From IMG/VR virus record IMGVR_UViG_2563366982_000007: a stretch of DNA of 27,589 nt; one strand, written 5' to 3'. The notes beneath the pieces are model-generated. The model saw only the letters and a program-made list of their open reading frames with translations, made no database searches and was not told the origin of the DNA. The first letter of the stretch is position 1, and each line of letters opens with the position of its first letter. Source of the stretch: a virus. Lineage: Duplodnaviria; Heunggongvirae; Uroviricota; Caudoviricetes. Of this stretch, positions 1 through 11,211 are shown piece after piece. The position numbers were made by a program, and so were the translations under genes.

Positions 1-54
1 GGTATCCGTTCTGCTGAAGTGTCATGGCGTTGATTTTACGGTGACTCTTCGACA

Positions 55-83
55 GTGAAAAGAAAAAAGGCCGCAGAGCGGCC
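55..83 (-). terminator. Putative rho-independent terminator for the minus-strand int-orf137-orf176 operon
   Basis: Hairpin GGCCGC-AGA-GCGGCC at about 69-83; on the minus strand it is followed by a T-rich run (complement of the A-run at 55-68). Lies about 110 bp downstream of the orf176 stop. Confidence 0.45.
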
Positions 84-192
84 ATAAACACAAACAAAAA
101 TCAACAAGTTAGATAATTATCAAAGACTTACAGACACACAAAAACACAGCCAACCACAACAAATAACAGAGATGTGGTCAATTTGTGGATCA

Positions 193-723
193 TCAGCCAA
201 CAAATTTAGCAACAAATACAGCAACCGCCGCCGTGAAAATGGTTGTGCATACTGGCACAATAATGCCACTCCAACGCCACTTCGTATTATCATCAACCTT
301 GTCAAACCGCCGATTCATCTCATCCATAATCTTGTCAAAGCGTTTATCCATCGCTTCGGTAAGCTCACCCTTCAGGCTGTTAATGTCTGATTTGAGCTGC
401 TCTTTCAGGTGAGCTGTATCAGATTTAAGCTCACCTTTCAGATTCGCAATATCGCATTTAAGATCACCTTTCAGATGAGCAATGTCTGCTTTGAGCTCAC
501 CTTTCACCTCACCAACATCGGCTTTGGTTGAGAGGTTTGTAGTGCGTTCAGCAAGCGTCGCAAGGTCGTTTCTTGTTAGCGATAAATCACCTTCGAGCCG
601 CTCAATTCGCCTTTCAAGTTTATCTGACATTCCGCCTCCACTATCACCGCCTCCCCCATCGAAAGAATTGCCAATGTCCTCACGAATAAGGGTTATGCCA
701 TGCTCACTTTTAGCATATGCCAC
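193..723 (-). CDS. Coiled-coil repeat protein with glycine-rich N-terminus and C-terminal hydrophobic (tail-anchor-like) segment; function unknown
   Basis: 176-aa ORF. Contains about 5 tandem 11-residue repeats (consensus roughly L-K-G-E-L-K-x-D-I-A-x) and ends in a hydrophobic stretch, WSGIIVPVCTTIFTAAVAVFVAKFVG. Its start abuts the stop of the upstream orf137, suggesting translational coupling. Confidence 0.6.
   Translation of the reverse strand: MAYAKSEHGITLIREDIGNSFDGGGGDSGGGMSDKLERRIERLEGDLSLTRNDLATLAERTTNLSTKADVGEVKGELKADIAHLKGDLKCDIANLKGELKSDTAHLKEQLKSDINSLKGELTEAMDKRFDKIMDEMNRRFDKVDDNTKWRWSGIIVPVCTTIFTAAVAVFVAKFVG
354..518. repeat. About five tandem 33-bp repeats, in-frame coding repeats inside the 193..723 CDS
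   Basis: Repeated unit similar to TTTgAGCTCACCTTTCAGxTGAGCaATaTC at 33-bp period, seen directly. Corresponds to the 11-aa protein repeats. Confidence 0.6.
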
Positions 724-1137
724 TCAGATTCCCTCCCAAACTATATATCCTTTGTCTCTTGCCCAACAAACAACTGTGTGGGCTGTATATGTGGATGTGA
801 AGCCGCAATAAGAACATGACACTTCATACCGAGTATTGTAGATGTTAATGGGCTCGTTCTCCTTGTGTATGGGAGTGACATATTCCCAATCATTTGAATC
901 ATCATAATCATCAAGTTCAGGGTCTGTGCCGTGAACAACCGTATGTGGAATAAACAAATCTGGGCGCCCACACGAGAGACAAGAGGTTCTGGCTCCTCTA
1001 TCTTTGAGGAATTGAATAAATAATTTGGGCGAAATCTGTTGCAGAACCTGCAAATGCCCACGTTCATTATCATTAAGAGACCTGTCTGCATATGGAAAAT
1101 CATCAAATTTAAGAGGCTTCATATAAGGCATCTCCAA
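724..1137 (-). CDS. Hypothetical Cys-rich protein (possible zinc-ribbon), co-transcribed downstream of int
   Basis: 137-aa ORF with two Cys pairs, C-L-S-C-G and C-S-Y-C-G. Its start region overlaps the int stop (alternative starts at 1128 or 1122), and its stop abuts the next ORF. Confidence 0.5.
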   Translation of the reverse strand: MEMPYMKPLKFDDFPYADRSLNDNERGHLQVLQQISPKLFIQFLKDRGARTSCLSCGRPDLFIPHTVVHGTDPELDDYDDSNDWEYVTPIHKENEPINIYNTRYEVSCSYCGFTSTYTAHTVVCWARDKGYIVWEGI

Positions 1138-2101
1138 GGGGATTAAATCTCACCGCATCCTGCAGGTAATCCGGCGCAAGATGGGCATAAATCATCGTTG
1201 TCTGAATCTTTGCGTGCCCCAAAATTTTCTGGAGGGTCAGAATATTGCCGCCGTTCATCATGAAATGACTGGCGAAGGTGTGGCGCAGCGCATGAACAGC
1301 CTGGCCGTCAGGAACATCAGGTGCGACCGTTTTGATGACATCGCGAACCAATGAATAATCCAGCGTCGGAAACACCAGTTTCCCGCCCCGTTTTTTGATC
1401 TTTTCAAACAGGCTTTCAGAAATAGGAACGGTACGGTTTTTGCTGTTCTTCGTTTTTGAAAAAGTGATTCGACAATGAAGAACACGGCGCTGCTCCAGTG
1501 CCGCTACCTCGCCCCATCGCGCCCCGGTCGACAGAAGGATTTCGACAGCCAGCCGTTCATCGGGATTTTCAGCCAGTGCATCCAGCAACTGAACACATTC
1601 AGACTTACTCAGGTATCCCATTTCGCGCTCGTTAACCTTCATTCCTTTAAGGCCTTGAACGGGGTTATCGTTAAGAAAATGGCCGGATGAGATGAGTGCG
1701 GTAAACATCGCGCTTAACGCCCCAATCTCTCGATTTATGGTGCTGGGCTGTATCCCCTGCTCTATCCTGGACACACGTAGCTCGGTGAGCATCGTTGTAT
1801 TAAGTTTATGCACGCACGGGTCATCCATTGCTTCACTCAAGCGCAGCAATTTAAGGCGCGTGTTATGCCCTGACTTCATTAGCTGGCCGTGGTATTTCCA
1901 CCACAAGTCAATAAGCACTGACAGAGGACGGCGATCAATAGAGTTTCCTTTCCACTCATTGTTATGCTGTTGCGCCAGCACCCACCGCTCATATAAAACT
2001 GCATCCGATTTCGTTTTAAATTTTTTGCGAATGCGTTTGCCTTTACGCCCCTCAGGGCGCATGTCAAGAAGATACCCTCCCGGAATTGATTTTATGCTCA
2101 T
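1109..2101 (-). CDS. int: Tyrosine recombinase / phage integrase (P2 Int-like)
   Basis: Translation has the tyrosine-recombinase C-terminal motifs (ARWGE, HALRHTFASHFMMNGG, LQKILGH, MIYAH) and an N-terminus, MSIKSIPGGYLLDMRPEGRKGKRIRKKF, that closely resembles P2 Int as I recall it. Start is trimmed from the track ORF (2251) to the internal Met at 2101 to match P2 Int length and avoid overlapping C. Confidence 0.9.
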   Translation of the reverse strand: MSIKSIPGGYLLDMRPEGRKGKRIRKKFKTKSDAVLYERWVLAQQHNNEWKGNSIDRRPLSVLIDLWWKYHGQLMKSGHNTRLKLLRLSEAMDDPCVHKLNTTMLTELRVSRIEQGIQPSTINREIGALSAMFTALISSGHFLNDNPVQGLKGMKVNEREMGYLSKSECVQLLDALAENPDERLAVEILLSTGARWGEVAALEQRRVLHCRITFSKTKNSKNRTVPISESLFEKIKKRGGKLVFPTLDYSLVRDVIKTVAPDVPDGQAVHALRHTFASHFMMNGGNILTLQKILGHAKIQTTMIYAHLAPDYLQDAVRFNPLGDALYEAS

Positions 2102-2150
2102 TCGTGAAACCCCAGCGTTACAAGACCACCATGCCCCCAGCGTTCCATGA

Positions 2151-2459
2151 TTAGCCGGGCTGTGTACCAGTCTTGCGGGATTTTTGAGAAGACGATGTGT
2201 TTTCTGGCCCATCAGGGGAGAGAGAGGGACTGATCTGCCCAGCAGCCTCATTTGTTTTTCCCGTCATAAGCCAATTCATGTACTTAAAAAAGCGAGGGTG
2301 ATTAACAATCTTGATAAGCACTTCGCCCCCTATGTTTTCAATCCGCCCCGTTTCATAACGACGCAAAGTGCCGATAGGCACATCAATCAGGCCGCAAAAT
2401 TCTTCGCGCGTTAAATCCTCTGATTCACGAATCACTCTAATTTTTTCACCGATAAGCAT
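2151..2459 (-). CDS. C: Immunity repressor, P2 C-like
   Basis: About 102 aa from the internal Met. The core motif EKIRVIRESEDLTREEFCGLIDVPIGTLRRYETGR resembles the P2 C repressor HTH region from memory. Position between int and a divergent rightward early operon matches P2. Confidence 0.7.
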   Translation of the reverse strand: MLIGEKIRVIRESEDLTREEFCGLIDVPIGTLRRYETGRIENIGGEVLIKIVNHPRFFKYMNWLMTGKTNEAAGQISPSLSPDGPENTSSSQKSRKTGTQPG

Positions 2460-2555
2460 TGACAGTGTTCCTATAAGTACACTAAGCTTGCGCACAAGGT
2501 GTACTTATAAGTACACCAAGTCACAAACAACCACAGATAGCGCAGGTTATCACAC
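2460..2555. promoter_or_regulatory. Divergent C / early-operon control region with direct-repeat operator half-sites
   Basis: Two copies of TATAAGTACAC at about 2472-2482 and 2506-2516; the second is embedded in a 20-bp perfect palindrome GGTGTACTTATAAGTACACC (about 2498-2517). TTGACA at about 2459-2464. The 96-bp region lies between divergently transcribed C and the Cox-position gene. Confidence 0.5.
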
Positions 2556-2834
2556 ATGGCAAAAGTCCTGAACACACACGAACAGGCAGACTTTGAGCGT
2601 TTAGCAGCGTTCTATCCCTACCGCGATGAGCATGGGTTACCAGTACTTGAAGAAAGCCTGAAAGATTACGCAAAGCGTACCAACCAAGCTGTTAACACAG
2701 TGAAAAGACAGGCTGACAGAGGTTCAATTCCCATCAACCAAGATGAAAAGAACTCAAGACGCACAGTAAATCTCTTCGCTCTTTTCCTGAAAACAATCAG
2801 GAGCGCAGAAAAATACGTGCAGATGACAAAATAA
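2556..2834 (+). CDS. First gene of early operon, Cox/Apl-position small regulator (assignment by position only)
   Basis: 92-aa basic protein immediately right of the operator region, transcribed divergently from C. I do not see clear sequence similarity to P2 Cox, so the call is positional. Confidence 0.45.
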   Translation: MAKVLNTHEQADFERLAAFYPYRDEHGLPVLEESLKDYAKRTNQAVNTVKRQADRGSIPINQDEKNSRRTVNLFALFLKTIRSAEKYVQMTK

Positions 2835-4381: not shown

Positions 4382-4522
4382 GCACCTCCAACTGCCGGAA
4401 ACCACGTCGGGCTTCAGCAGCTCATCCGGCAGCAAAACAAACTCCATTAATTCCTGTTCCGGGCCTTTCCTGCACCTTGCGGCGGGAGGCCTTCGCACAT
4501 CTGTAACAAGAGGATTGCCGCA

Positions 4523-4888
4523 ATGATTCTCGCCAACGACTTTCTTGAATACCTGCTCAACACAGAACGTGATCTTGCCGCTCGCGTGCGTGATCGTTAT
4601 GACATGTACCTGAAATCCCTGCCTGTACCGCAGCTCGCTGACGGAAAGATTGTTATTGATGGTCGCTACATGATTGACAGCCACGAGGGAAATTACAGGC
4701 TTTACCGCATTGAAGGTGGCACCCCGTCCGTTATTGGCATTTACCAGCGCCCATCCTCTGCAATCGTCGATGTGATTGCCGACAGCATCCGCATCACACA
4801 TCGCCATGCCGACACAGAAGACACCGTGCTGGAAATTCAGCGGCTGGCTACAGTCTGCCGCGACACCCTGAATGGCATGACGAAGTAA
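4523..4888 (+). CDS. Hypothetical protein immediately upstream of A
   Basis: 121-aa ORF ending 7 nt before the A start. Confidence 0.45.
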   Translation: MILANDFLEYLLNTERDLAARVRDRYDMYLKSLPVPQLADGKIVIDGRYMIDSHEGNYRLYRIEGGTPSVIGIYQRPSSAIVDVIADSIRITHRHADTEDTVLEIQRLATVCRDTLNGMTK

Positions 4889-7840: not shown

Positions 7841-8962
7841 ATGGGCGACTTAGGTGGTATTCAGTCAGATTTAGCCCAACTAGTTAGACTGGTAATAACT
7901 GAACAGTATGATGACGTTCGGTTATATGTCGCTCGCTTGGTGCGTAAATATCGGGAAACTATGCCTGCTCTATCCGAGCAGCTTGATCTTTATCTACGAA
8001 ATAAACCGCAAAAGCCTGCACAAAGCCTGCGTAAGGTTACCGCACCAAAACAAGCGCTGCCTCAAACCATGCCTGTGGACGAGGAGTCAAGGCTTACCTT
8101 GCTTAAAGCACCAAATGAAAAGATTGTGAGCAAACCTCTACTGTCCAGTCAGATAGAAGACTCACTGGATCAAATTATTCTTGAGCGGAAGCACATCGAT
8201 CGCCTCAAGACTCTCGGCTTACAACCAACACGCTCTGCCATTTTTGTTGGCCCTCCGGGTGTAGGTAAAACACTTACGGCAAGCTGGTTAGCTCAGAAAT
8301 TAGGGGTTCCTTTTTACGTTCTTGATTTAACGGCAGTAATGAGCAGCTATCTGGGCAAAAGCGGAAATAACCTTCGGGCAGCTCTAGATTTTGCGAAGAA
8401 AGGGCCGTGCGTTCTTCTGTTAGATGAAATTGATTCAATCGCCAAAAAGAGAAGTGATGATTCTGATGTTGGAGAATTAAAAAGACTTGTTACCGTGATA
8501 CTCCAGGAGGTTGACGAATGGCCGTCTTCTAGTTTGCTACTTGCTGCAACTAACTTCGCTGAGTTGATTGATCCAGCACTATGGAGACGTTTTGATTTAG
8601 TGCTCAATTTTGAGAAGCCAGATAGCGAAAGTATTAAAGAAGCAATTAAACGCTTTTCGGGTCCCGACTACGCGATTTTTGCACGTTGGATAGATCTACT
8701 GGCTATTATGTTCAAAAATGAATCTTTTAGTAATATTGAGCGTTCTATCAACAAATTCCGACGTTCGGTCGCTTTAGGTATTTCCTCAGATGAAGAGTTG
8801 ATTGGGTCGTTCATTAAAGATGGTTTATCAGAATTAGACAGGAATGAACGTAAAGAAATTGCAGTTACTCTAAAAAGAAATTCTAAATTATCCCAGCATG
8901 CCATATCAGACTTAACCGGAGTCAGTAGGGATACAATTAGAAAATACAGTCAAAAAATGTAA
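7841..8962 (+). CDS. Classic AAA+ ATPase with C-terminal helix-turn-helix; candidate defense ATPase
   Basis: Walker A GPPGVGKT (about aa 137-144), Walker B LLLDEID (about aa 192-198), sensor-1-like AATN, arginine-finger-like WRRFD. C-terminal LSQHAISDLTGVSRDTIRKYS resembles an HTH. AT-rich codon usage unlike the flanking phage genes. Confidence 0.85.
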   Translation: MGDLGGIQSDLAQLVRLVITEQYDDVRLYVARLVRKYRETMPALSEQLDLYLRNKPQKPAQSLRKVTAPKQALPQTMPVDEESRLTLLKAPNEKIVSKPLLSSQIEDSLDQIILERKHIDRLKTLGLQPTRSAIFVGPPGVGKTLTASWLAQKLGVPFYVLDLTAVMSSYLGKSGNNLRAALDFAKKGPCVLLLDEIDSIAKKRSDDSDVGELKRLVTVILQEVDEWPSSSLLLAATNFAELIDPALWRRFDLVLNFEKPDSESIKEAIKRFSGPDYAIFARWIDLLAIMFKNESFSNIERSINKFRRSVALGISSDEELIGSFIKDGLSELDRNERKEIAVTLKRNSKLSQHAISDLTGVSRDTIRKYSQKM

Positions 8963-8985
8963 TACAGCATAGATAAGGAGTATGT

Positions 8986-11211
8986 ATGGCGAAAACTAAT
9001 TTTCTGATTGGACGCGGCGAATTATTAACCAGCGATATTCCTGGTCCTAAAAGAGTGCCCGGAAAAGCTGAGGTTTATTCTCTTTACGAATCGAAACAAC
9101 GTTTATTGCCGCAAATTGCATCTACTATAGAAAATTTTGATGATTTACCCAGTCAGGCATGTCCTTATGATTATGCTGTGGCTAAGTTGACGTTGAATCC
9201 AAGCTATATTGCACGCTCTTTTTTTCCTGCAAAAATGCTTAAGTCTACCGGGTTAACGTCTATTGGCAGCAGGACGGTAAAAATTACGCCTCAAAGCTGG
9301 AAGCGAAAAGTTACTGTGTCAGAAGTAACTACGACACAAATGTTTGTTGCTGGTAAAAGAGAATCCTTCAAAGAGTTACCTCATTGGGTGTCAGAACTCA
9401 AAGAGTTTTCTGACGAAGCGATTGATTTTGCACGCATAGAACGGTTCGATGCCTATTTACCCGAAGAGCGTATTATTACCATTGGTGAGCAGGATTCTTC
9501 GTATTTTGAGGTTGGTGTTCATTTACTGCCAGATAATGAACAAGACTTGGTTCAGCAACAATTTGTTCAGTTTGCATCAAATTTGAACATCAAAGTACAT
9601 ACTTCATTAGCTTTTACCGCTGGTACATTATGGTTCGTGCCAATCCAGGCCGATAGAATTACTATTAGTAAGCTTGCGAAATTTACATTTGTACGAGTAA
9701 TAAGACCGGTTCCAAGATTGCGTGGGATTAGACCAATACAAAGGAACTACGGTCCTTTAGCTCAGTGTAAATTACCTGCTGAGGGCCCCGTATCTTCAGA
9801 AATAAAAGTTGCGATTCTTGATGGTGGTTTACCATCAGAGCACGCTATATCGCCATGGTTAAAATCCTATAGAGTTTTGGACGATCATGCAGAGGATGAT
9901 CCAGACGGTTTAGAGCATGGTTTAGCTGTGTCTTCAGCCTTTTTATTTGGACCAATAAGTAATAAATCGGAAGCGAAAAGACCATACTCTTATATTGATA
10001 ACTTAAGAGTTTTGGACAACAAGACCTGCCAAGAAGATCCGCTGGAACTATATCGAACTTTGGGCTTTATTGAAGAGGTATTGTTGTCTCGCCAGTATCA
10101 GTTTATCAATCTAAGTTTAGGTCCAGACCTACCAATTGAAGATACGGAAGTTCATGCATGGACTTCCGTTATTGATGATTTGTTAAGTGATGGTGAAACA
10201 TTAATGACTGTTGCTGTTGGCAACAATGGAGAAATGGATCGCAAGTCTGGTAATGCAAGAATTCAAGTACCAGCCGATTGCGTTAATGCTCTTGCTGTTG
10301 GTGCTTGTGATACAGTTAATGATACGGAATGGAAACGAGCACCATATAGCGCCATTGGGCCAGGCAGAAGTCCTGGCGTGATGAAACCGGATTTAGTTGC
10401 GTTTGGTGGTGACACAGACGAGTACTTTCATGTTTTAGGTAAAGGTAAGAAGCCTGTAATCATACCCCAGCTAGGAACAAGCTTTGCCTCTCCTTACGCC
10501 TTACGAGCAGCTGTTGGTGTTCGGGCAATTTTAGGGAACGATTTGAGCCTACTAGCAATCAAAGCTTTGTTAATTCATGCGTCAAAACAGCTTGATCATC
10601 CTTGTACAGAAGTTGGCTGGGGAAAACTGCCTGAAGACTTGAACGACATTATAGTCAGCCCTGATGGTGTTGCCCGTATCGTCTACCAAGGTGAATTGAA
10701 ACCAGGAAAATACTTACGCGCTTCTCTTCCAATACCTGAAGGTGGCTTGAAAGGTAGAATAAACTTAGCGGCAACTTTCTGTTATGCAACAACCACTGAT
10801 CCACAAGACCCAGCTTCCTATACAAAAGCTGGTTTGGAAGTGACATTCCGGCCAAATGATTCAAAAATCAAAGACGGAAAACAAAATGCTGAAACCAAGG
10901 GATTCTTTGAACTGGCCAAATATTCAACTGAAAGTGAGCGACGTTCTGACATGGGCAAATGGGAGACCGTCTTACATAATTCGAAGAACATGCTAGGTTC
11001 AACTCTAAAAAATCCTGTATTTGACATTCATTATAACGCTCGTGAGGCCGGTGCAAGCATAGCCAGCCATAAGGCAGAAAAAATCAAGTATGCTCTTATA
11101 ATTACCATTAAGGCATCAAAGCACCAAGACCTGTATAACGAAATTTTACGTACTTATAATCAGGTGCTCGTGCCAATTCAACCGCAAACATCAATTCCTA
11201 TTCGTTCGTAA
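8986..11211 (+). CDS. S8 family (subtilisin-like) serine peptidase, cytoplasmic, with N- and C-terminal accessory domains; candidate defense effector or sensor
   Basis: Catalytic triad in canonical S8 order and context: Asp in VAILDGG (about aa 279), His in EHGLAVS (about aa 311), oxyanion Asn in VGNNG (about aa 413), Ser in GTSFASPY (about aa 499). No N-terminal signal peptide. About 270 aa precede and about 230 aa follow the protease core. Starts 23 bp after the ATPase stop with RBS AAGGAG. Confidence 0.85.
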   Translation: MAKTNFLIGRGELLTSDIPGPKRVPGKAEVYSLYESKQRLLPQIASTIENFDDLPSQACPYDYAVAKLTLNPSYIARSFFPAKMLKSTGLTSIGSRTVKITPQSWKRKVTVSEVTTTQMFVAGKRESFKELPHWVSELKEFSDEAIDFARIERFDAYLPEERIITIGEQDSSYFEVGVHLLPDNEQDLVQQQFVQFASNLNIKVHTSLAFTAGTLWFVPIQADRITISKLAKFTFVRVIRPVPRLRGIRPIQRNYGPLAQCKLPAEGPVSSEIKVAILDGGLPSEHAISPWLKSYRVLDDHAEDDPDGLEHGLAVSSAFLFGPISNKSEAKRPYSYIDNLRVLDNKTCQEDPLELYRTLGFIEEVLLSRQYQFINLSLGPDLPIEDTEVHAWTSVIDDLLSDGETLMTVAVGNNGEMDRKSGNARIQVPADCVNALAVGACDTVNDTEWKRAPYSAIGPGRSPGVMKPDLVAFGGDTDEYFHVLGKGKKPVIIPQLGTSFASPYALRAAVGVRAILGNDLSLLAIKALLIHASKQLDHPCTEVGWGKLPEDLNDIIVSPDGVARIVYQGELKPGKYLRASLPIPEGGLKGRINLAATFCYATTTDPQDPASYTKAGLEVTFRPNDSKIKDGKQNAETKGFFELAKYSTESERRSDMGKWETVLHNSKNMLGSTLKNPVFDIHYNAREAGASIASHKAEKIKYALIITIKASKHQDLYNEILRTYNQVLVPIQPQTSIPIRS

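Follow-up and report, generated by a model that had tools for sequence, protein, structure and literature searches.

Two genes between integrase and prophage edge

The window analysed here is the whole stretch of 27,589 nucleotides held as IMG/VR virus record IMGVR_UViG_2563366982_000007; it is the left portion of a P2/186-like prophage of E. coli. Two open reading frames (ORFs) follow the integrase gene int on the minus strand and were termed genes X and Y. They had been singled out in an original prediction, made from the letters of the sequence, as an int-coupled pair with overlapping or abutting stop and start codons and, indeed, both ORFs are present, the start of X overlaps the 3' end of int by 14 nt and the GTG start codon of Y (723) directly follows the TGA stop codon of X (724-726). 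X and Y are best explained as one accessory two-gene module of temperate enterobacterial phages, for which we tentatively propose a role in phage exclusion. The features of the pair are:

724-1122, minus strand: gene X, 132 amino acids, with a four-cysteine zinc-ribbon motif; phrog_4293
970-981, minus strand: first CxxC knuckle of X, C48-L-S-C51, invariant in 45 homologues
805-816, minus strand: second CxxC knuckle of X, C103-S-Y-C106, invariant in 45 homologues
193-723, minus strand: gene Y, 176 amino acids, tail-anchored coiled coil, DUF1640/CCDC90-like; given as 193-630 (145 amino acids) in RefSeq
661-723, minus strand: variable N-peptide of Y, residues 1-21, predicted to be disordered, co-varies with X
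631-660, minus strand: Gly-rich linker of Y, residues 22-31, DGGGGDSGGG; 15-bp direct repeat at 632-660
628-630, minus strand: internal Met32 codon of Y, conserved; start codon in RefSeq and possible second translation start
517-534, minus strand: beta-layer motif L64-S-T-K-A-D69, which separates heptad and hendecad coil segments
343-507, minus strand: five 11-residue (33-bp) repeats of Y, residues 73-127 (Tandem Repeats Finder; periodicity 3.68)
208-270, minus strand: predicted C-terminal transmembrane (TM) anchor of Y, S152-A172, followed by KFVG only

The longest ORF of X extends from 724 to 1137 and has a TTG start; the ATG at 1122 was chosen as start codon because it is preceded by a GGAG at a distance of 9 nt and because MKPLKFDD is the N-terminus of all close homologues. 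The protein is acidic (isoelectric point 5.1). The paired CxxC motifs noticed before proved to be invariant: C48, C51, C103 and C106 are kept, together with W120, in 45 X homologues down to ~20% identity. Besides the knuckles, a helical N-terminal part (TPxLFxxFLxEKG) and a C-terminal helix carrying the invariant Trp are conserved. The AlphaFold2 (AF2) model of X (predicted local distance difference test (pLDDT) 78, predicted template modelling score (pTM) 0.74) is helical in its N-terminal part, has a beta region between the knuckles and one further helix at the C-terminus. X matched no family in Pfam, NCBIfam or PADLOC; the sole family found was phrog_4293, which has no assigned function. 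A fold search gave no significant match, and in Foldseek X weakly matched small zinc-ribbon proteins. A profile search of 1.84 billion representative proteins yielded 79 X clusters (50% identity), all of them stand-alone proteins of 70-180 amino acids; some truncated fragments in the X cluster carry the label 'integrase, partial'. No copy was found on plasmids. Of two scans of species-representative genomes the first gave no hit and the second Providencia stuartii only, therefore the X family is rare among species representatives. The RefSeq record NZ_OZ546956, which contains an identical prophage, leaves gene X unannotated. Taken by its sequence, X represents a new small family with a zinc-ribbon motif, and it is predicted to bind zinc.

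The start codon of Y is preceded by GGGAGGG 7 nt upstream. RefSeq calls the protein from Met32 (145 amino acids) under the names 'CCDC90 family' or 'DUF1640'. The long form of 176 residues is supported because the frame upstream of Met32 is uninterrupted in every lineage although the sequences diverge strongly, because the Y start overlaps or closely trails the X stop, because the N-terminal part has a ratio of nonsynonymous to synonymous substitution rates (dN/dS) of 0.28-0.44 when close loci are compared (0.72 against the more divergent locus L038), and because the exact 176-residue protein has been deposited as such on at least 1000 contigs. The Gly-rich N-terminus of the original prediction had to be revised: the Gly-rich stretch is a linker (residues 22-31) that comes after an N-peptide of ~21 residues. 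Residues 1-31 are predicted to be disordered and residues 1-26 had a pLDDT <50 in the AF2 model. In one homologue (L043, IMG/VR 2671180603_000011) the linker is enlarged by (GGD) repeats, GGDGGDGGDGGDGGSSGGG.

The stalk of Y includes a helix (residues 32-64) of heptad-like hydrophobic period (3.56). At the beta-layer motif, of which T66, K67 and D69 are at least 90% conserved, the AF2 helix breaks (residues 65-66). The tandem repeats of 11 residues seen before were recovered by Tandem Repeats Finder (period 33 at 402-525) and have a hydrophobic periodicity of 3.68, near 11/3; close Y homologues have 0-6 repeats and differ in length by multiples of 11 residues. The C-terminal membrane anchor, which had been predicted as well, corresponds to a segment with a mean Kyte-Doolittle hydropathy of 1.99 over residues 153-173 and to an AF2 helix at 145-175. 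It is present in 36 of 37 unique complete Y sequences; the exception, L051 (IMG/VR 2698536443_000010), is frameshifted just ahead of the TM segment, ends with ...NTKCEPPRVSWRVFYL and may be an inactivated copy or a sequencing error. Five K/R residues flank the TM segment on its N-terminal side and one on its C-terminal side, which, together with the lack of a signal peptide, suggests that the stalk is cytoplasmic.

Met32 is conserved in 37/37 unique pairs. A GGAGG lies 9 nt before its codon in the window linker, and in 6/9 lineages a string like a Shine-Dalgarno (SD) sequence, GGAG(G), built of the rare Gly codon GGA, is found at -9 or -12. A short Y isoform that starts at Met32 and is devoid of the N-peptide is conceivable, but Gly codons (GGN) readily yield SD-like strings without selection. 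The arrangement recalls dual-start holins, and X-Y might be a toxin-antitoxin-like addiction module or a holin/antiholin-like lesion module, with Y as membrane toxin and X or the short Y isoform as antidote. The genes are indeed small and overlap, the upstream one codes for an acidic soluble protein and the other for a protein with one TM segment, there were weak matches to holin, spanin and XhlA profiles (phrog_689, E=0.0067; PF10779, E=7e-4, below the Pfam cutoff), and an orphan copy exists on the chromosome of Rahnella. However, these profile matches are all below threshold and typical of coiled-coil/TM composition, the GGN codons give SD-like strings as said, no known toxin or antitoxin domain was found, and the pair belongs to the lysogenic operon and not to a late lysis cassette, on the strand opposite to the early lytic genes, which begin at 2556. 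We consider this explanation quite improbable. Two narrower forms of it are not supported: a dual-start holin/antiholin, since Met32 lies 31 codons past the first start, the SD occurs in only 6/9 lineages, the operon is lysogenic and the holin matches are at noise level, and a type II toxin-antitoxin system, since neither X nor Y has a toxin or antitoxin domain in Pfam or NCBIfam.

Conservation of the pair and exchange of the cassette of X and N-peptide

Loci were gathered from IMG/VR, public assemblies, GenBank phages and E. coli genomes (designated by L numbers); X was located by profile and the downstream frame was inspected. Y was found downstream of X in all 61 loci with room downstream, down to ~25% X identity. 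The 61 comprise 58 loci analysed by script, in which Y is alike in architecture and which include L051 with its frameshifted Y, plus L061 (Providencia), L064 (Enterobacter phage ENT1) and L065 (ETEC4088). Among the loci listed by script, the start of Y overlaps the stop of X or abuts on it, with offsets of 0 to -17 nt, and the SD sequence lies inside the 3' end of X; in ENT1 the Y start is 3 nt past the X stop. This indicates that the two genes are translationally coupled or at least very tightly spaced. In the window allele, X and Y share a frame and are parted by one TGA with the GTG directly after it. A read-through fusion as a general feature was discarded, since other alleles overlap by 1, 4, 8, 11 or 17 nt in other frames. 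Homologues occur in Klebsiella, Salmonella, Citrobacter, Raoultella, Cronobacter, Rahnella, Providencia and Enterobacter phages. For X and for Y alike, at least 1000 public contigs (E. coli, E. albertii, Shigella and Salmonella) encode the exact protein, and the window Y allele was found in ~64 of 5426 E. coli genomes.

The dN/dS values, 0.16-0.32 for X and 0.11-0.36 for the Y body, are well below 1 and therefore both genes are under purifying selection. These values bear on the trivial explanation that X and Y are chance or decaying ORFs at a prophage edge, a non-functional remnant or an annotation artefact. RefSeq leaves out X in some records and shortens Y, and the one frameshifted copy of Y would fit such a decay; dN/dS, the invariance of the four cysteines and the tryptophan over 45 diverse homologues, the paired architecture kept across genera and phage types and the confident AF2 model of X (pLDDT 78) all speak against it, and we regard it as extremely improbable.

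Comparison of alleles revealed that X and the N-peptide are exchanged together and independently of the stalk. In prophages of E. coli O103/O145/O157 the DNA of the Y body is 99% identical to that of the window, but the likeness ends at position 643, inside the Gly linker, and upstream of it these prophages have a different N-peptide and a 166-residue X that is only ~28% identical. The same pattern was seen in the whole set. Over 37 unique pairs, the identity of X correlated with that of the N-peptide with a Mantel r of 0.96 and with that of the Y body with an r of 0.56. In 93 comparisons in which the Y bodies were >90% but the X proteins <40% identical, the N-peptides were 15-29% identical; conversely, they were 67-70% identical in the 6 comparisons with X >60% but Y body <60% identical. 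Since X and the N-peptide go together in both directions, the unit of exchange is X plus N-peptide, joined to the stalk at the linker. By these sequence comparisons, the Gly linker is the recombination boundary of the cassette. The simplest functional reading of the co-variation is that X would bind its cognate N-peptide.

The prophage edge, the presumed immunity operon and other placements

The surroundings of the pair in the window are:

59-83, no strand: attL core AAAGAAAAAAGGCCGCAGAGCGGCC, with host DNA (btuC-ihfA) on the left and prophage on the right; from the K-12 break and the attR duplicate
59-83, minus strand: intrinsic terminator, hairpin 83-69 and then TTTTTTCTTT; from a terminator scan
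84-192, no strand: A/C-rich prophage arm between the att core and the Y stop codon
1109-2101, minus strand: tyrosine integrase (Pfam Int_N 1.6e-28, Phage_integrase 1.1e-19; RefSeq coordinates), stop codon at 1109-1111
2151-2459, minus strand: cI-like helix-turn-helix repressor (Pfam HTH_3/HTH_31; RefSeq), first gene of the presumed cI-int-X-Y operon
7841-11211, plus strand: IetA-IetS defence pair (PADLOC) in the main P2 hotspot between the gpA replication gene and the portal gene

Window positions 1-83 were matched by all of the 5426 complete E. coli genomes and belong to the btuC-ihfA intergenic region. The alignment to the unoccupied K-12 site breaks off past position 83, and the 25-bp string AAAGAAAAAAGGCCGCAGAGCGGCC recurs at attR beside ihfA in NZ_OZ546956. 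The attL core was therefore assigned to 59-83, which places both X and Y inside the prophage, between attL and int. Hence, the view that the genes belong to the mobile element was borne out, and X and Y as host genes are ruled out; homology searches with both proteins found no housekeeping relatives either. The att core falls on the hairpin of the bidirectional terminator behind ihfA, so that integration leaves ihfA a terminator at attR and gives the leftward prophage operon one at attL. This GC hairpin with its T-run was the sole convincing terminator downstream of cI and the leftward genes in the terminator scan and likely ends the cI-int-X-Y transcript. In the arm at 84-192 neither an ORF nor an RNA family was found, and in an Rfam search of window positions 1-2700 all matches were below threshold. 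A search for internal promoters of X or Y gave none that was convincing, the number of sites being equal to the expectation from shuffled sequence. Transcription of cI-int-X-Y as one operon is consistent with the sequence; co-transcription with int is plausible because the codons overlap or abut, because there is no convincing earlier terminator and because the pair lies between cI and int elsewhere.

To the right of int and cI follow divergent early genes and then the gene for the gpA replication endonuclease. The early genes upstream of gpA include a pseudogene fragment of an 'ash family protein' that lacks its N-terminus (RefSeq; L001 8407-8526, window ~4407-4526). PADLOC recognised IetA (373 amino acids, E=1e-77) and IetS (741 amino acids, E=1e-51) in the main hotspot. 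In the NZ_OZ546956 copy of the prophage, the interval from ogr to attR contains a gene of the Hok/Gef toxin family (L004 3640-3780), and small membrane-protein cargo is therefore present on both prophage edges; a gene for a hypothetical protein of 384 amino acids lies between ogr and gpD.

The pair was found in seven arrangements. The order cI-int-X-Y-att of the window recurs in L002, L035 and L037 and in Klebsiella and O103/O145/O157 prophages, the order cI-X-Y-int was found in Citrobacter braakii and the order cI-Flk_N-DUF8087-X-Y-int in Raoultella. In the lambdoid Enterobacter phage ENT1, X-Y directly follows a lambda-type CI (HTH_3 + Peptidase_S24), the position of rexAB in lambda. In Providencia the pair neighbours ogr and gpD at the opposite end of a P2-like prophage; it lies between tail-chaperone and tape-measure genes in a Cronobacter prophage, and on the chromosome of Rahnella with no phage genes within 5 kb. 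Since four of the seven arrangements are placements in a repressor operon, we argue that the pair is probably expressed in the lysogen. In the Raoultella and related prophages (L032-L034 4071-4973) the genes between cI and X-Y code for a Flk_N protein (209 amino acids) and a DUF8087 protein; Flk is a tail-anchored regulator of flagellar export. The cargo also varies at one and the same site: sister prophages at btuC-ihfA with int 98-99% identical have at least three different X/Y alleles or other cargo, namely type A (window), type B (166-residue X, L037), a fourth allele (L065) or an unrelated gene for 131 amino acids (L066). The latter, a hypothetical gene at 1690-2085 of L066 (E. coli O111:H8), occupies the int-att slot of a prophage that is broken by IS1203. 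The allele swaps at this site and the ogr, tail-gene and orphan placements argue that the module is accessory and mobile.

A function in the life cycle of the phage itself has to be weighed at this point, i.e. control of the lysis-lysogeny decision, of integration and excision or of induction, for example by sequestration of a regulator or protease at the membrane. The window X is translationally coupled to int by the 14-nt overlap, in P2/186-like prophages the pair is always beside or inside the cI/int immunity-integration operon, and in ENT1 it comes directly after CI. Most P2/186-like prophages do without the pair, however, as judged from the ~64 of 5426 genomes with the window Y allele and from the sister prophage with an unrelated gene, and copies also stand between tail genes, next to ogr and, in a chromosome, with no phage genes within 5 kb. 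The probability that we assign to such a function is low.

A candidate exclusion module and its relation to known systems

The guess of the original prediction that genes at this edge serve lysogenic conversion or exclusion is plausible. We propose, with a confidence that stays short of even, that X-Y is a candidate phage exclusion or abortive-infection module expressed in the lysogen. The pair would probably be expressed from the repressor (cI-int) operon. Y would be a tail-anchored inner-membrane protein with a probably trimeric, cytoplasmic stalk, in which a heptad segment and a beta-layer are joined to 11-residue repeats of variable number and which presents a short disordered N-peptide on a Gly-rich tether. 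X, a soluble acidic four-cysteine protein of the putative zinc-ribbon type, translationally coupled to Y, would most likely dock on the cognate N-peptide, and exclusion or abortive infection would take place at the cytoplasmic face of the inner membrane. X may then act as an exchangeable subunit for specificity or sensing, and Y as effector or anchor in the membrane. Exclusion is the best supported function because of the position of the pair, its two-component logic and its allelic diversity. It is supported further since the same prophage already holds one recognised defence pair, IetA-IetS. The placement in repressor operons of three phage types also strengthens it, as does the slot itself: the int-att and int-primase intervals are listed as minor defence hotspots in a survey from 2026 that covered thousands of P2-like prophages (PMC13586616). 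More doubtful is the wider claim that X-Y represents an unrecognised class of prophage immune or exclusion systems, in which an exchangeable zinc-ribbon sensor sits on the N-peptide of a length-tunable, tail-anchored, trimeric stalk homologous to MCUR1/CCDC90; we think that it is unlikely to hold as a whole.

Several observations weigh against an exclusion module of this kind. PADLOC had no family for X and only matches of the coiled-coil type for Y (ZorA, LmuB, LeoBC; E 2e-5 to 0.03), the X family was not found in classical defence islands and, with 79 clusters at 50% identity, it is rare. Liberibacter phage SC1 and APSE-1 have Y-like DUF1640 proteins without an X partner, and the stalk family therefore has a role that is independent of X. 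The co-variation of X and N-peptide could stem from physical adjacency and is no proof of binding, because the N-peptide is encoded right beside X, and recombination could take place at the conserved linker and coil start. The literature searched on DUF1640, CCDC90, tail-anchored prophage proteins and the RefSeq accessions contained no functional study of either family. Moreover, operon expression, zinc binding, trimerisation and topology are predictions.

Expression in the lysogen, which is probable, would also suit lysogenic conversion, in which the stalk and its adaptor sequester or scaffold a host factor at the inner membrane to the benefit of the lysogen, with no anti-phage function. The resemblance of Y to the DUF1640/CCDC90 scaffold family (best Pfam match, beta-layer motif and C-terminal TM segment) fits this explanation, for which the scaffold role reported for mitochondrial MCUR1/CCDC90B would be one model. 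Proteins of the ElaB/YqjD type, which are tail-anchored and bind ribosomes, would be a second. In addition, the Raoultella pair trails a Flk_N-domain gene in the same operon, and identical sequences abound in assemblies from clinical E. coli, Shigella and Salmonella. Yet the allelic diversity and the swapping of X and N-peptide in near-identical prophages suit an arms race better than a conserved host target, and no result points to a host partner. Modulation of the host is, in our estimate, rather unlikely.

Every copy of X and Y carries the annotation hypothetical or DUF1640, and gene calls are often wrong. If the module excludes phages, the defence systems known from prophages would gain a new one that consists of two genes, and the contents of the int-att and cI-int intervals, a P2 hotspot that is poorly understood, would be accounted for. 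The prokaryotic members of the MCUR1/CCDC90 family would receive a function, the swapping of specificity modules at a linker would be illustrated, and the module would bear on phage-therapy host range in clinical Enterobacterales. Under the wider claim, DUF1640 proteins of bacteria and phages would have their first function, and the module would be of a natural plug-in design, with a sensor cassette joined to a membrane stalk at a recombination joint in the Gly linker and possibly with two Y isoforms. If it is not anti-phage, X-Y would still be a conserved membrane module that is probably expressed in lysogens. Neither the pairing nor the cassette structure nor the position in the immunity operon appears to have been described before.

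Y is best described as a borderline member of a named family, and X is unclassified. With small zinc ribbons such as those of the TFIIS type, Lar-like restriction alleviation proteins and the N-terminal ribbon of NrdR, X shares two CxxC knuckles with four conserved cysteines, which flank beta strands. It differs from them by a helical N-terminal part of its own and by the C-terminal helix with the invariant Trp. For Y, the best Pfam match was DUF1640/CCDC90 (PF07798), a family that contains MCUR1, CCDC90B and prokaryotic and phage proteins. The score of 26.5 bits (E=6.7e-6) does not reach the gathering cutoff of 33.5; several close Y homologues have precomputed PF07798 matches and PGAP names Y DUF1640/CCDC90, so membership is borderline rather than excluded. 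Y shares with the family the coiled-coil stalk, the beta-layer motif and the single C-terminal TM anchor. MCUR1 and CCDC90B have a folded N-terminal head domain before the stalk; Y lacks a globular head and has the disordered N-peptide and the Gly linker instead. Hartmann et al. (2016, PMC4786415) define the beta-layer motif as [aliphatic]-A-T-K-[polar]-[DE], located where the C-terminal stalk begins; Y has it as L64-S-T-K-A-D69, with Ser for Ala at position 2. A profile search of solved structures with Y gave matches, below significance, to trimeric beta-layer constructs (7o92, E=0.015; 6h9l, E=0.18). The DUF1640 proteins of Liberibacter phage SC1 and of APSE-1 resemble Y in an ATKAD motif, tandem 11-residue repeats (VRTELKQDIAN x4 in SC1, L062 2417-2794; ADVRKDLSAEI x5 in P47 of APSE-1, L063 1890-2462) and a TM tail, and, unlike Y, have no N-peptide, Gly linker or X partner. 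The gene annotated as 'tail fibre' P48 in APSE-1 lies on the opposite strand and overlaps P47. No function for any bacterial or phage DUF1640 member was found in the literature searched.

Cargo of the minor P2 hotspots (PMC13586616) shares the location of X-Y, int-att for the window pair and cI-int for other alleles; the passages searched in that paper contain nothing like X-Y, which differs from such cargo in that PADLOC does not recognise it and in that it is also present outside P2-like phages. Apart from the coiled-coil-type matches of Y, no sequence similarity of X or Y to RexA, RexB or the defence proteins catalogued in PADLOC was found. In arrangement, the nearest counterpart is rexA-rexB of phage lambda. 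There, too, a soluble protein and a membrane protein are encoded downstream of, and co-oriented with, the prophage repressor, as in the window (cI-int-X-Y), in ENT1 (CI(S24)-X-Y) and in the others (cI-X-Y-int). RexB is a polytopic membrane protein, whereas Y has a single TM segment and a long stalk. By analogy, X-Y would parallel rexA-rexB both in position and in logic.

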